From Alphaproteobacteria bacterium UBA1254 (GTDB lineage Bacteria > Pseudomonadota > Alphaproteobacteria > RF32 > CAG-239), in assembly GCA_002308495.1 (NCBI GenBank), contig DBVW01000021.1, forward strand, positions 11,338-75,337: DNA of 64,000 nucleotides, in the 5' to 3' direction. This document shows, one piece after another, positions 18,001 through 33,000 of the stretch. Position 1 is the first letter of the stretch. Every line of letters starts with the position of its first letter. Made by a program: the position numbers.

Positions 18001-21000
18001 TGTTGGCAACACAGGCCCCCAAAAAAGTTTCGGAGGCTGTGCCACAGCTTTTAAAATCATATCCCTCATCTTACCAAATCTCTTTTATCTTAGTTTCCGA
18101 AAAGACCTTTCAATTTGTTCATGGCATCGGTAAATGTTCCCCATGCTGCATCAACATTTTTACCCGTGTTATAAACCTTATTTCCGGCACTGGCACCCGT
18201 GTCAACCACGCCGCCGGCATCTGTAACACCGTTTTGCTGTTTATGCAACCAGTCATTAATTGCCTTAATGGCATCAGAAACACTGTTGCTCCCGTCCGGA
18301 TTCGTTTCACCGTTCGTTGACCAAACGGTCGCCGTATCGCTGACATTACCGCCGATGCCCATCAAAGCACCTAAAATTTGGTTAATATCACGCGTAACCG
18401 AACCTGTTGCACCGGCCGTATTATGCGTCAAATTGGAAAGATCTTTAAGCTTGTCCAAAAACGTTCCGCCGCCGCCGACAATAGCGCCGCCTTGTTGTAT
18501 TGCGCTCCAAATATCGACAGCCGCACCGACACCGCCGGCAACAGCCGTTGCCGCATTCTGACCGGCATCTACGGTATTATTAACCGTGCGCCAAATATCG
18601 CCTAATTGCTGCCATGCTGATTTTGAACAAACACCGTCTTTAACTGTTCCTTGGCAAGTTTCTTGTGAGATTTGAACAGTCCCGTTTTCACTGACCGTGC
18701 AAACGCTTCTCGTCCCGCCTTCGCTCCACTTACTCTTTGAACTTGTGCTTGAAGGACTGCAGCCTGCCTGAACCATTTTTGCAAAATCCGAACTTTCGAC
18801 ATCAACATTGCCGACCTTAACCGTATCAGGCAAATTGTTCAAACCGCCTTCTTGGAAATATTCCGACATTTGTCTTTCCAATTCCCATTGCATTTCCTGT
18901 TCTGCTTCTGCAATCATCGCATCAAGCTCGGCATCGCTGATATCGCCCGGCAACGCCGGTTTTTCACCGCTATAATTCGGATCTGTAATATCTGTAGGAT
19001 TTGTGCCGCTGACTGAAGCATTGGCGTATGGCTTAGCTTCCAAAAAGTTATCAAAAGTCAACTGTGCCTGTTCTCTTGATTGCCAATAATCGTCTCCGCT
19101 GAAATATTCCAAAAACGGAAACATCAAGGCTAAAAGCGAAAGGCCTATCATAATATAGCCTAAGTGTTTGTAGCTGATTTTATTAAAGATCGCCGCAACG
19201 GCAAACACAACCAAACCGAAGCCGGAAATCACATAGACGATTTGTCTTAAATCAACCAGCGTACTGTAAAGCTTTCCCTGAATCGTATCAAAAATTTCGG
19301 AATCCGCCGCAATCGCATCAGTCGAAAACAAAAGACAAAACATTGTCATTAAAAAGAGTGATTTTAAAAACTGTCTCAAATTTTTCATGTTTGCCTCCAT
19401 TTAAATTAATAATATATTCTTATTTAAGTGTATCCGTAATCCCAAAAACATCAACATCAACTTCTGCTCCGGTACCTTGCGTTAAATACTTCAAAAGAGC
19501 TGCTGTTCCTGCAATAACCACAACACCGATAATAATCACCGAAAGCCATTTCCAGTTCAGCGCACCGAAAACCGCGCCGATAGCGATGGCAATAATACCG
19601 AAACCGGCTGCAACAAATATGATTTTTTTCATACCATTAAAAATTTCGCCGCCGGTCTTCGTCAAACTTTCAAAAGCGGCATAACTTTCCGTTGAAAATA
19701 AAATTAAAGAAAGCGCGTAAACCAAGAGGCCCGCGAGCAAATACATTTTTAATTTCTCAAAATTTACGTTCAACATAATCTTTTCCTTTCGCCTTTAAAA
19801 GCTATTGACATAAGTCTTACCATAATAATTGAAGTAAAGGGAAAGCCCGTTAAAGAGCTTTCCCTTAAGCTTTATCTTAGTACAAGATAGTATCACCGGA
19901 TTGAGAGTTATCTCTAAATGTATCGGCATAACCACCTTGACCTGTTGTCGTAACCGTATCACCTGTAGCGTATTCGATAACGGCACCGGCAGCAGCCAAA
20001 ACGCCAAGACCGACAGCTAAAGCGCCGAACCAAGGCCATTTAACTTTACCGAAGATAGCTTGAACGGCTAAGCCGACCAAACCGAAACCACCGATAACGA
20101 ACACAATCGTTCTGACAGATTTAAATACGTTTGCACCTTTTTTAATTGCTGTTTGAACAACCGTAGAAGATTGAACGGCAGCGCTGGCATCGCTTGTCAT
20201 AGCAACCATCAAAACAAGTGCTAAGCTAAACAATGTCCAGAAATTGTTTTTTAAGAATGTCATAGTTTTTCTCCTTTAACAAATTAAACAAAACTTCTTT
20301 ATACAATTATAGAATATCAGATTTTTTCGCTTTTGACCAGCATTTTCTTTGCTTTATAAATTCTCGTAACACTTTGATTTTGCTAACAAACCCAAGCCTG
20401 TAACAAAAAATTCATAATCGTTCTGACATCCAAAACACCCATTTTTATATCATCAAAAAGTTAAAACATCCTAAACAAAAAATCAATCTTTTAAACCCCG
20501 AAATATTTGCAAAACTTTCGTCTTTCCTATTAAACAATTTTTAACACAATCTGTTGTAAATTATCGTAAGATGAAACCGTAAAAGTCCGAGGAAAAAGCG
20601 CACACGTGCTTATTTTTAGGGCGTTTGTAAATTTTGGAGCAAATAAAAAATAATGCAAAAAAATAATGTAAAAAATTTTGTTTGCAGTTTTCTTTTTTCC
20701 ATTTTGGCTGTTTTTTGCATCCAAAAATTATTCTTGCGCACACCTGTTGTTAAAAAAGCAGACACAGATCAAAACATCAAAGTTGAAAAGATACAGCTCT
20801 TTTCCGAAAAAAGTGCGCCGAAAGATGACATTGTTTTAAATAAAGTTGCCGTAAACGAAGTTGATGTTTCCGACATCTCGGCATTAACGGCAGAACCCGT
20901 TACAAAAGAAAAAGAAATAAAAGAGGCTCCTTCTCCCGTTGTCGCACTCTCAAATGAAACGCCTCAAAATGAGGTTGCCGTTTCAACCGATTTGGCTTTT

Positions 21001-30000: not shown

Positions 30001-33000
30001 CCTTGTCGGCACTGGTCAAGGGCGGTGTTCCTGTTTCGGTTGCACTTGCGAGCTTAAAGCGCGATGCCAGCAGATATTTAAAAGAGCGTATTGACGGCAC
30101 TTTAAAATACATCAAAAACGGTGACAACTTAGGTCAGGCCTTAAATAAAGCGGGCTTCCAATTCCCCGACAAAGAAATCATTGCCGACCTCAAGATTTAT
30201 GCCGAACTTGATAACTTTGAAGAAGCCCTTGAAAGCTTGGCGAACAACTGGCTTGAAGAATCTGTTTATATGATTGAGCAAAAAGCCTCTATTTTGAACA
30301 TGGTTGCGATTTTAACCGTTGCGGCAATTATCGCGTGGGCTGTGTTCGGCGTGTTCGACATGCAAGATCAAATCACTTCTGCAATGGGATCATAACCATC
30401 ATGAAAACAACCTTTGGCAACAAGCGCTTTCACCTTTCATCGAATGCTTTTTTAGGCATTGCGTGCGCTGTTGCCATTGGCCTGTTTTTGCTCCTGTTTT
30501 TCCTGCTAAAACCGAGCCAAACAGCAAGCGTTACGGACGAAATTTCAACATTGAGCCGAAATATCCGCACTCATTTTCAAAAAAAGACGGATTATCGCGG
30601 TTTAGATACAAATTTTGCCATAAAAAACAATATGGTACCGCTCGAAAAAATACGCGCAAACAAAGTTTACAGCAAAAACAAATCTGAAATCATTATCGGT
30701 CGTGATATTTCCGGCAATACCGTCATGCCGACCGAAAATCTTTTCGCAATTACTTATCTCAACCTTGATCGAAACAAATGCAAAAAACTGCTGACCTCAA
30801 AACTTGATGCAACCTCTGGCGTTGTTTCGATAACTCTTGAAAATGAAGAGGCATCATACGAGTTCACATACGGCGGAAGCTTACCTCTTCCGGTCAGCTC
30901 CGAAAACGCAAAAAAATTCTGCAAAGCCAAAAACGCCGTTATGTTCACTTTTGAATAGTCTTAAATCCTGACGTTAAATCTTTTCAAAACATAATCCGTC
31001 ATCACCTGATATACGGTTTTGATTTTCTTTTCATCAACCTCAAACGTTTTCAAAACCTCGCACATCCCCTTAAACAAATCAAGCTTTTGACAATATAAAA
31101 TACTGTAAAGATAATTAATGTCAAAAATCCAGCATATTGTTGAAATAACAATCTCAGCATTCGTTTTCCGCAAGCTGTTCGGGGCAACTTTCCGGTTCTC
31201 GAAGAACGACCACAGTTCGCCATTAATTTGGCTTTGAGCCTGAGAAAAATCATCAAAATGCGGGAACCAAACTTCTTTGACCTCGTCCAATTCATTTCTT
31301 AATAAATTCCAGTTGGCGATTTTATCGGCATCTCTCACGGCAAAACAAATTTTTTCAACATCTTTCTTTGTCTGATTATCAAGTTTTTTGTATTCTTCAT
31401 CTTCATAAAGATTTTCAATCATATGCCCATGATGTTTGATCGGCAGCGTTATCAAAACATCATTAAAATCAACCGTCTGCGCCAAAAATTCGGCTCCTTT
31501 TTCTCCATGGTCGATTTTTTGACCCGTTTCAAACCACCCTCTGATCTCTCGAAACCGAAAAATATCATGAAGCAAAATCGCTGTTTTACAAACATCAACA
31601 AATTCTTTTGACTTGTCTTGAAAATACGCTTCGTGCGCCAAAATCCCGTTTCCCGCCCCCGAAACCTGAAGTGAATGCCTGAATTTCTCGTTCATATACG
31701 CTTCATGAAACAAACTTCCGGCAACAACCTTAAAATTCTCATTAAATTCTTTTTCTAAAAGCTTTTTTGCTTTTTCATACAACGGATAAAACATCTTCAC
31801 CTCTAAAAAAACGATATTCCTTTTTAAAACAAAAACCATAAAAAAACACCATTAATATGGTGTTTTTAACAAATAGCTGCAAAAAAGCCCTTGTCAGGCG
31901 CCCGTTATACAAGCCTTATTTACTTATGGCTATTGAGCCAGCTTGTCACACTCTCTGCCGACGTAAAGCCGACTTTCATATCAATCTGCTTACCGTCTTT
32001 GAATAAAAACATGCTCGGAATACTTCTGATACCGAACGACGCAGCCGTATTCGGTGCCTCATCAACATTCACTTTGAAAAATTTAACTTCAGGCATCGCT
32101 TCGGAAACACCTTCCAAAATAGGACCGAGCTGACGGCACGGACCGCACCATTCTGCCCAAAAGTCGACCAAAACCAAGCCTTTTGAATCTAAAACTTCTT
32201 TTTGAAAATCACTTTCATTTAATGATAACATTGCCTTATCCTTTCTAAAAATAACTCTTTGAAGAATATAATCTCTTGAACTGATATTAAAATTAAAACT
32301 TTAGCTAAACAACTTTAAATTTTAAATTTTCATCAACTTTAAAGTGTTGGTCCATAAAATATACGTTTCAATTCTTTTGCCCTCATAAACTTTTTCCAAA
32401 AGCTTCCGATAAATTTCCATCTGTTGAACATATTGGTTCGGCACCTCTGCCCGTTCGTCCGCCGCAGGTCTGTTGGTCTTAAAATCGACAATGACAACTC
32501 TGTCGTCAAAAACAATCAATCGATCGATTTGCCCCGAAATAATCTTCCCCTCGACCTCTCCCATCACAGGCACTTCCGCGCGCGAATTTTCACCGAATAT
32601 AAAAGAAAGTTCTTCATTATCCAAAAGTTCTAAAACCTCTCCCGCAATATTTTGCCTGTAATTGTCGCTCAAATCGGATTGCTTTAAAAGATAAGCCTCC
32701 ACAAGCTCACGGCGCACCTGTTTTGAACATTTGCCGGGCAACATCTGCAAAAGCTTATGAATAATCAATCCTCTTTTATAGAAAAACCCGTCATCTTCAA
32801 GCGGAGAAGCCGCCGGCTCGTCATCTTCATCTTCCATATGCGAAGGCGAATATGGTCTGCTCAAAGCATTTTCAACCGGCGCCGGATTAAAAGCAAATGA
32901 ATCATCTTTTTCATAAAAAGGTTCTTCGTTTTCGTTTTCTTTTTTGATTTCGGCTTTTTGTTCTTCTTCATAAGCAAAAACACCGTTTTCTTTTGAAACG

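Follow-up and report, generated by a model that had tools for sequence, protein, structure and literature searches.

A predicted chromosomal type IVb pilus assembly operon divergent from a VirB-ordered type IV secretion locus in uncultured gut Alphaproteobacteria

A stretch of 64,000 nucleotides from Alphaproteobacteria bacterium UBA1254 (GenBank assembly GCA_002308495.1, contig DBVW01000021.1, positions 11,338 to 75,337 of the forward strand), referred to here as the window, was analyzed for a putative type IVb pilus assembly cluster and for the genes of a type IV secretion system (T4SS) diverging from it. Eight co-oriented, tightly packed open reading frames (ORFs) were present on the forward strand between 20653 and 30958, where the original prediction, made by reading the DNA without database searches, had placed such a cluster. 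In order, they encode an OmpA-like protein (ORF1), a TcpQ/PilL lipoprotein, a PilN secretin, a PilO2/BfpC protein, a coiled-coil PilP homologue (ORF5), a BfpD-like ATPase, a GspF-family platform and a protein with a pilin fold. The gene order was collinear with pilL-N-O-P-Q-R-S of R64/IncI, with the annotated IncI arrangement pilL-(M)-N-O2-P-ATPase-platform-pilin, and also with Pseudomonas and Bosea plasmid clusters. Pfam and NCBIfam profiles directly assigned six of the eight genes, and the profiles searched for this purpose (Secretin, T2SSE, T2SSF, TcpQ and PAP_PilO) all found their match. Together with the hhalign identification of PilP and the collinear IncI order, these assignments bear out a type IVb pilus in R64/Bfp order, and the region 20653–30958 is confidently predicted to be an intact type IVb pilus assembly operon. 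Public gene calls place starts at 22409 (PilL), 23127 (PilN), 26020 (ORF5) and 30401 (the pilin-like gene).

ORF1 (20653–22317, 554 amino acids (aa)) encodes an inner-membrane protein that consists of an N-terminal transmembrane (TM) helix, an acidic low-complexity linker of approximately 400 aa, and a C-terminal OmpA-like domain, for which fold search revealed an OmpA-like peptidoglycan-binding fold. The protein is probably the peptidoglycan anchor of the machine. Its identification as R64 PilM was rejected on comparison. The second gene (22409–23140, 243 aa) encodes a PilL/TcpQ-family lipoprotein that matched Pfam TcpQ (PF10671; E 3e-16, 59.7 bits against a cut-off of 27). It carries the lipobox LSGC, its C-terminal domain was 26% identical to IncI PilL (E 4e-7), and it is probably the partner of the secretin. 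The PilN-type lipoprotein secretin itself (23127–24728, 533 aa; lipobox VAAC) matched Pfam Secretin with E 3e-17. On the NCBIfam model TIGR02520 ('PilN family type IVB pilus formation outer membrane protein'), it received 287.6 bits against a cut-off of 287.65, just under the threshold, compared to 41.9 bits on the GspD model and 37.2 bits on the PilQ model. The plasmid homologues of PilN showed 25–31% identity and were mostly annotated as PilN family; 2544 of the 3109 were located on conjugative plasmids.

The fourth gene (24744–26030, 428 aa) encodes a bitopic inner-membrane protein of the PilO2/BfpC type with a single TM segment at residues 197–215. The match to PF06864 (PAP_PilO; E 2e-18, 66.7 bits) spans positions 3–419 of the 419 in the profile, and the NCBI Prokaryotic Genome Annotation Pipeline (PGAP) names its relatives 'type 4b pilus protein PilO2'. 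ORF5 (26020–27597, 525 aa) is composed of a signal peptide, a Pro-rich region, a coiled coil of approximately 300 aa and a conserved C-terminal beta domain. The original prediction had described it only as a coiled-coil protein; the coiled coil is present, and an identity could be added. Profile–profile comparison by hhalign aligned ORF5 with the PilP proteins of IncI, Pseudomonas and Bosea plasmids (probability 89%, E 2.3e-6), and because of this match ORF5 is predicted to be PilP carrying a large insertion. The C-terminal domain of three orthologues scored 15–20 bits on TIGR03021 (PilP), below the cut-off of 34.65. PDB sequence-profile searches with the C-terminal domains of ORF5 and ORF1 returned nothing meaningful; fold search and hhalign were needed instead. 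The extreme C-terminus of the PilP homologue (27550–27597) carries the motif PSLGxxMFV[KR], which was kept in all 22 of 22 aligned orthologues behind a variable linker. This peptide may serve in docking, with the secretin or PilL as conceivable partners.

The extension ATPase of the PilQ/BfpD type (27615–29264, 549 aa) matched Pfam T2SSE with E 1e-66 and contains a Walker A motif (GPTGSGKS), a Walker B-like motif, a His box and the tetracysteine motif CPHC...CKYC (two CxxC pairs) that had been read from the sequence earlier. Its best PDB match was BfpD, the extension ATPase of the bundle-forming pilus (BFP) of enteropathogenic Escherichia coli (EPEC), with 306 bits over residues 31–533, compared to 170 bits for GspE and approximately 150 bits for PilB/PilF. 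It is followed by a PilR/GspF-family inner-membrane platform (29277–30395, 372 aa) with four hydrophobic segments, which matched PF00482 (T2SSF) in two stretches.

Three other class assignments were rejected. A type II secretion system (T2SS), raised by the original prediction as the competing identity, was examined and ruled out: the secretin reached 41.9 bits on the GspD model, whose cut-off is 351 bits, and the ATPase reached 228 bits on the GspE model with a cut-off of 630. BfpD was the best solved-structure relative of the ATPase, and no Pfam or NCBIfam match to GspC, GspL, GspM or the pseudopilin set GspG-K was found. A Tad/Flp (type IVc) identity was rejected since the TadA-family model gave only 49 bits on the ATPase; this 549-aa protein aligns with BfpD nearly end to end, and the pilins are of approximately 200 aa and belong to the PilS/bundlin family. 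PGAP labels several of the orthologous ATPases 'Flp pilus assembly complex ATPase component TadA', which conflicts with the BfpD-type assignment. The IncI/R64 thin pilus proper was the third, with PilV, the shufflon, Rci, PilM and the PilT transglycosylase absent from both cluster and window. Pfam scans covered nearly all ORFs of at least 100 aa lying outside longer ORFs, a few short ORFs near the left end being left out. In agreement with the earlier reading, neither an A24 peptidase nor another ATPase of the T2SSE family nor a shufflon protein turned up in these scans of the window. Searches for Rfam families and tRNA genes in the window gave no match.

The last gene of the operon, here named PilS' (30401–30958, 185 aa), encodes a type IVb pilin fold with a non-canonical N-terminus. 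Pfam Bundlin and PilS matched it with 26–28 bits, over their cut-offs, and the top 13 Foldseek PDB matches of its AlphaFold2 model were all type IVb pilins (S. Typhi PilS, CofA, TcpA). Over the globular domain it was 26% identical to a canonical pilin, and both Cys residues align. The N-terminus lacks Glu5 as well as a conserved cleavage site or class III signal. Across 72 species, the tail preceding the TM segment is 5 to 43 residues long, Lys/Arg-rich and positively charged; the TM segment itself shows 15.5% identity, with an acidic residue inside it in just 5 of the 72. The PilS' of the window has a vestigial FG/NKRFHLS that aligns to the canonical FG/RSMIE (a slash here separates leader and mature part), with Ser in place of Glu5. 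PilS' is most likely a derived, divergent pilin-fold paralogue that acts as a membrane-anchored or priming pilin-like subunit rather than as the bulk fibre subunit. The claim that the cluster ends in a pilin-like gene thus holds for the fold; the gene product is non-canonical, and the likely major pilins at 59953–61229 had been missed.

Those two canonical type IVb prepilin genes were found by a motif scan 29 kb from the pil operon. Prepilin A (59953–60576, forward strand, 207 aa; leader ...KENIG/RSMIEILGILAII) scored 43 bits on Pfam PilS and 37.5 bits on Bundlin, and prepilin B (60627–61229, reverse strand, 200 aa) has the leader MTKENEFG/RSMIEMLGVLAII. The two genes are convergent and their products share 60% identity; their scores (PilS 43–50 bits, Bundlin 37–45 bits) are above those of PilS'. 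Both leaders end in G/RSMIE(I/M)LG, so that a class III signal (Gly-1, Glu+5) is combined with a type IVb globular domain, and at approximately 190 mature aa they are full-size type IVb pilins. The first 22 mature residues of the canonical prepilins showed 93% identity among 37 genes from related species. Prepilin A is probably the major pilin substrate of the machine. In the window, the genes adjoining the two prepilins are ssb, topA and dprA, while more than 20 relatives carry one to three canonical prepilin genes directly after PilS', and a deeper relative (L092) carries them directly after the platform gene, without PilS'. From these arrangements it is predicted that the ancestral operon ended in canonical pilins and that the pilin genes were moved 29 kb away in the window genome. 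The maintenance of canonical prepilins leads us to predict that the genome encodes a prepilin peptidase outside the window. An HD-domain protein (30961–31839, reverse strand) converges on PilS'; it was found in a few closer relatives, and since it is absent from most loci it is probably not part of the pilus system.

On the other side of ORF1, the reverse strand carries the proximal arm of the T4SS (15357–20263). It comprises three virB2 genes, each matching Pfam TrbC, namely virB2a (19877–20263), virB2b (19420–19776) and virB2c (18090–19400), whose 436-aa product bears a long extension. Next come a virB3-sized ORF (17779–18069, 96 aa), named from its size and position alone with no profile match, and virB4 (15357–17789, 810 aa; Pfam CagE_TrbE_VirB, and 360 bits on TIGR00929 VirB4). 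The back-to-back position of the pilus cluster and a VirB-ordered T4SS, noticed at first reading, proved to be real and conserved. Among the 62 species with enough flank, 54 carried two to four divergent virB2 genes beside ORF1, as determined with a VirB2 hidden Markov model. Two deeper relatives, with PilO 38–42% identical, also showed virB4, virB3 and in part virB2 divergent from an ORF1-like gene that is followed by TcpQ, secretin, PilO, a PilP-like gene, ATPase and platform. A cluster at 29% PilO identity was of the usual mobile-element type with PilM, PilV and shufflon, and no T4SS gene was recognizable within 10 kb of it. Because the pairing was seen in the relatives at 38–42% PilO identity, unlike in this mobile cluster, it is predicted to be old and characteristic of this subfamily.

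The distribution of the system was assessed by scanning one genome per GTDB species, which revealed at least 247 species genomes encoding a close relative of the ATPase. Conservation was then described from the loci of the best 80 of these 247 species matches, which are gut and rumen metagenome-assembled genomes labelled Alphaproteobacteria (including CAG:495 and "Ca. Scatocola"). Bacteria of this lineage are widespread in the guts of humans, ruminants, rabbits, chickens and other animals. All eight genes were kept, in order, in the 80 species loci, with identities of 72–97% for the ATPase, 48–98% for PilN, 45–89% for PilO and 22–71% for PilS'. GCA_016282265.1 and run SRR5324876 also contain the exact ATPase. 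Among plasmid proteins, the best homologues from outside the clade reached only 25–38% identity; they are PilQ/BfpD, PilN and PilO2 encoded by conjugative plasmids or in ICE-like regions (ICE, integrative and conjugative element). Four records titled 'Lachnospiraceae bacterium', '[Ruminococcus] gnavus' or 'Bacteroidaceae bacterium' (loci L011, L031, L039 and L040) carry the alphaproteobacterial cluster on long contigs and are probably mislabelled or contaminated bins.

The flanks of the locus consist of housekeeping genes, among them thioredoxin, AddAB, RdgB, RNase PH, a XerC/D-like integrase, DciA, ATP synthase, FtsK and TopA, and the downstream context varies between subclades. The sole integrase of the window (40604–41521) is this XerC/D-like protein, which lies among housekeeping genes. 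A mobile-element setting was rejected on account of these flanks and of the lack of a relaxase, replication genes or an element-type integrase in the 64-kb window. The locus is thus predicted to be chromosomal core DNA and not a mobile element.

The divergent spacer between virB2a and the pil operon (20264–20652, 389 bp) had been proposed as one shared control region for co-regulated deployment of the two systems, a proposal that the spacer sequence does not bear out. The spacer is real; among 37 species it mostly measures about 290–530 bp, with a few longer examples of up to approximately 1.2 kb. It contains two separate conserved elements, each tied to one operon. The virB2a-anchored element of 16–18 nt, TGTAACAAAAAATTCAYA (20399–20416, forward strand), was found exactly, at the same position and in the same orientation, in 43 species loci. 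As TGTAACAAAAAATTCA, it occurred once per locus in these 43, except in L047 where it occurred twice, at 112–141 nt (typically about 135) from the virB2a ATG and at 150–1058 nt from ORF1. No exact copy was found in the eight loci without an adjacent virB2. A second copy could not be found in the window, including upstream of the canonical pilin genes, and this uniqueness leaves no evidence of a shared regulon. The T4SS arm may have its promoter or operator in this element at 20399–20416. Approximately 30 nt nearer to virB2a than TGTAACAAAAAATTCAYA, there is another conserved block, TAACATATTGTTTT-like. The ORF1-anchored element, ATTAAC-N3-ATTTTAAYA-N5-6-TTGTAT (approximately 20527–20562, forward strand; the window copy has one extra T), precedes the ORF1 ATG by 96–100 or 119–125 nt in 33 of 47 species. 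Of the loci with no virB2 neighbour, at least two, L008 and L057, keep this element, which is a candidate pil operon promoter. Scans of the spacer for generic sigma-70 promoters and for terminators remained at chance level.

The remaining T4SS genes extend leftwards to 4182. On the reverse strand from 20263 to 4182, the full order is three VirB2, the VirB3-sized ORF, VirB4, four profile-less proteins, two VirB8 and VirB9/CagX. The four profile-less proteins (443, 245, 425 and 1368 aa) occupy the place where VirB5/VirB6 would be and gave sub-threshold coiled-coil matches only; the 1368-aa ORF is placed at VirB6 by size and position alone, with no profile match. After VirB9, a 1599-aa bitopic beta-flower protein (2–4168, reverse strand; Bflower_2 in 13 stretches) extends past the left end of the window, and the next protein outside it, of 1409 aa, consists of beta-flower repeats fused to TrbI/VirB10; in locus L085, the coordinates of this beta-flower observation are 12396–20738. 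Relatives carry single VirB10–beta-flower fusions of 2200–2400 aa. For a core component of a T4SS, such decoration is unusual. A further clade genome has virB8-B9-B10-B11 standing separately, surrounded by housekeeping genes, ribosomal ones included, and neither VirD4 nor a relaxase lies beside them; VirB11 was seen in a relative only.

Gene identities, order, conservation, linkage and chromosomal context are direct observations at this locus. Pilin assembly by the machine and its adhesive role are inferred from homology to BFP, the toxin-coregulated pilus (TCP) and R64, and the IncI/R64 thin pilus, the PAPI-1 pilus and BFP belong to the same lineage as the window operon. In the machine that we envisage, the BfpD-like ATPase, docked to the GspF-type platform and PilO2/BfpC, would polymerize the canonical pilins (G/RSMIEM...) encoded at 59953–61229. 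The filament would exit through the PilN lipoprotein secretin, aided by the TcpQ/PilL lipoprotein, and the long PilP homologue would link the inner-membrane complex to the secretin. The clade-specific ORF1 would tether the machine to peptidoglycan by its OmpA-like domain, and PilS' would serve as a membrane-anchored or priming pilin-like subunit. Since neither the cluster nor the window encodes a retraction ATPase, we expect the pilus either to be adhesive or to retract independently of such an ATPase, as TCP does.

As for its role, the operon would have stood head to head with the virB2-virB3-virB4 arm since before the clade diversified. The pilus may make or stabilize the cell–cell or cell–surface contact used by the short-range T4SS, as a chromosomal counterpart of the mating-pair stabilization performed by IncI/ICE thin pili. 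The thin pilus of the IncI2 plasmid TP114 stabilizes mating pairs in liquid and in the gut (PMC9045228), and the type IVb pilus of PAPI-1 is required for T4SS-mediated transfer (PMC5297154). Based on this precedent, the conserved linkage and the ancestry of the family on conjugative elements, we favour, with some reservation, a type IVb operon of the PilL-N-O-P-Q-R lineage that is carried on the chromosome, is passed on vertically and likely makes or stabilizes contact needed by the T4SS. Cooperation between pilus and T4SS is plausible by analogy with mating-pair stabilization in IncI plasmids and ICEs.

Several observations weigh against this proposal. The secretin is borderline on its own family model; 8 of the 62 species keep an intact pil operon in another neighbourhood with no virB2 neighbour, so that linkage in cis is dispensable; and the two spacer elements differ and segregate with different operons, no shared operator being evident. 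An A24 prepilin peptidase, a PilV-type adhesin and a retraction ATPase were not found in the window, a crude regex motif scan revealed no A24-like ORF in approximately 1.5 Mb of related loci, and neither VirD4 nor a relaxase was seen in the T4SS stretches inspected. The eight unpaired operons and the separate conserved upstream element of each operon also speak for the main rival, which we consider unlikely. According to this, the pilus is independent of the T4SS and serves BFP/TCP-like adhesion or aggregation (on mucus, feed particles, host epithelium or sister cells), with the head-to-head arrangement as mere retained synteny, possibly left over from an old conjugative element after its fixation in the chromosome. 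Such a mobile-element origin fits the closest homologues beyond the clade, which are located on plasmids or ICE-like regions, and the occurrence of virB8-B11 elsewhere in another clade genome indicates that T4SS genes tolerate dispersal. However, the linkage is kept in 87% of testable species and down to 38–42% PilO identity despite reshuffled sequence beyond the far end of the operon, a retention that exceeds the expectation for neutral synteny of divergent operons, and no integrase, relaxase or repeat boundaries flank the block.

The lack of a retraction ATPase or PilV-type tip adhesin in the cluster and window, together with the membrane-anchored look of PilS', would also suit a short pseudopilus-type device for T2SS-like protein secretion or DNA uptake, with PilS' as its anchored base. 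Type IVb systems can secrete proteins, as TCP does with TcpF and CFA/III with CofJ, and dprA and ssb lie near the canonical pilin genes. We regard such a device as improbable, because no GspC/L/M or pseudopilin set accompanies the cluster, every marker scores best on type IVb models, and the pilins are full-size members of the PilS/bundlin family. The dprA-topA and ssb genes are ordinary housekeeping neighbours of a pilin location that is not conserved, and neither ComEA nor ComEC was seen. Decay of the cluster into a remnant without function is hardly credible: R64's peptidase, PilV, PilM and lytic transglycosylase are missing and the pilin of the operon itself has no class III signal, but eight intact ORFs with preserved catalytic motifs, core proteins conserved at 45–97% identity across at least 80 species and canonical prepilins maintained with N-termini 93% identical all stand against decay.

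A more far-reaching form of the favoured contact-making pilus would be that pilus and VirB-type T4SS constitute one co-evolved, chromosomally fixed contact-and-inject apparatus, derived from a domesticated conjugative module and serving an obligately cell-associated lifestyle (epibiotic or predatory on microbes, or attached to a host or protist). We consider this extended form quite unlikely. If it were true, coupling adaptations would be seen in the OmpA-like ORF1, in the giant PilP with its coiled coil, in the anchored PilS', and in the beta-flower decoration of VirB10 and its neighbouring proteins. The biology of the lineage is essentially undescribed, and literature searches on this lineage with pili or T4SS found no description; a conserved pilus and T4SS surface-contact module would offer a lead to its cell–cell interactions. 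The locus also suggests that the thin pilus–T4SS partnership known from conjugative plasmids and ICEs can be chromosomally fixed and vertically inherited over long periods. Moreover, the long-coiled-coil PilP, the OmpA-like anchor and the pilin fold without a class III signal are natural variants that may inform how type IVb machines are built.

Type IVb pili paired with a T4SS have already been described from conjugative elements, including IncI1/R64, TP114 (PMC9045228), PAPI-1 (PMC5297154) and pYR4 (PMC6232867). The earlier impression that the pairing matched no described system therefore did not stand for the theme, though it did for the chromosomal, non-mobile setting and for the lineage, which differ. 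The IncI1/R64 and IncI2 (TP114) pilI-pilV clusters share the same core gene order and likewise have the pilus beside a T4SS, but the proteins of IncI/R64 are only 25–36% identical to those of the window. IncI/R64 has PilM, a lytic transglycosylase, an A24 peptidase, the PilV adhesin, the shufflon and Rci, none of which is present in the window cluster; the latter has in addition the OmpA-like ORF1, the coiled-coil insert of approximately 300 aa in PilP and the non-canonical pilin PilS'. The settings also differ, as the window cluster is chromosomal and non-mobile with a VirB-ordered partner having duplicated VirB2 and VirB8, whereas the IncI partner is of the I-type. PAPI-1-type clusters and that of Bosea sp. 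RAC05 plasmid pBSY19_1 are alike in their TcpQ-family protein, secretin, PilO2, protein in the PilP position, ATPase, platform and pilin. The Bosea cluster gave the best plasmid PilO2 match (28% identity) and was among the best ATPase matches (36%), the top plasmid ATPase match being on a Methylorubrum extorquens megaplasmid (38%). Unlike the window cluster, these clusters have their own PilT-like second ATPase and PilV, have no equivalents of ORF1 or PilS', and stand in a mobile-element context with replication and partition genes, topoisomerase III and Dot/Icm-like genes.

BFP of EPEC resembles the window system in its BfpD ATPase, BfpB-like lipoprotein secretin, BfpC/PilO-type protein, BfpE-type platform and bundlin-family fold. 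It differs in having its pilin gene first, in possessing BfpF as retraction ATPase, BfpP as peptidase and BfpI/J/K as minor pilins, and in residing on the EAF plasmid with no link to a T4SS. TCP of Vibrio cholerae is alike in the TcpQ and TcpC secretin pair, the lack of a retraction ATPase and the type IVb pilin fold; unlike the window system, its genes are ordered differently and include TcpB for a minor pilin and TcpF for a secreted protein, and it is located on a pathogenicity island without a T4SS partner. Among Alphaproteobacteria, the rvh T4SS of Rickettsiales is likewise a chromosomal VirB-type system with duplicated components, a likeness given by the duplication pattern alone (three VirB2 and two VirB8 in the window). 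In basal Rickettsiales, type IV pili co-occur with the rvh T4SS, and an attachment role of the pili has been proposed for a T4SS-bearing, host-associated cell (PMC9352585); what was reported there is joint occurrence in genomes, as opposed to virB genes lying physically next to a type IVb operon. Thus, the components and the pilus–T4SS theme are already known, and the window locus is a chromosomal variant of the conjugative-plasmid pairing, not a new kind of machine. What is new is its fixed, chromosomal and non-mobile context across a large uncultured gut clade, its partnership with a VirB-ordered T4SS having duplicated components, and the lineage-specific OmpA-like ORF1, long PilP and signal-less PilS'.

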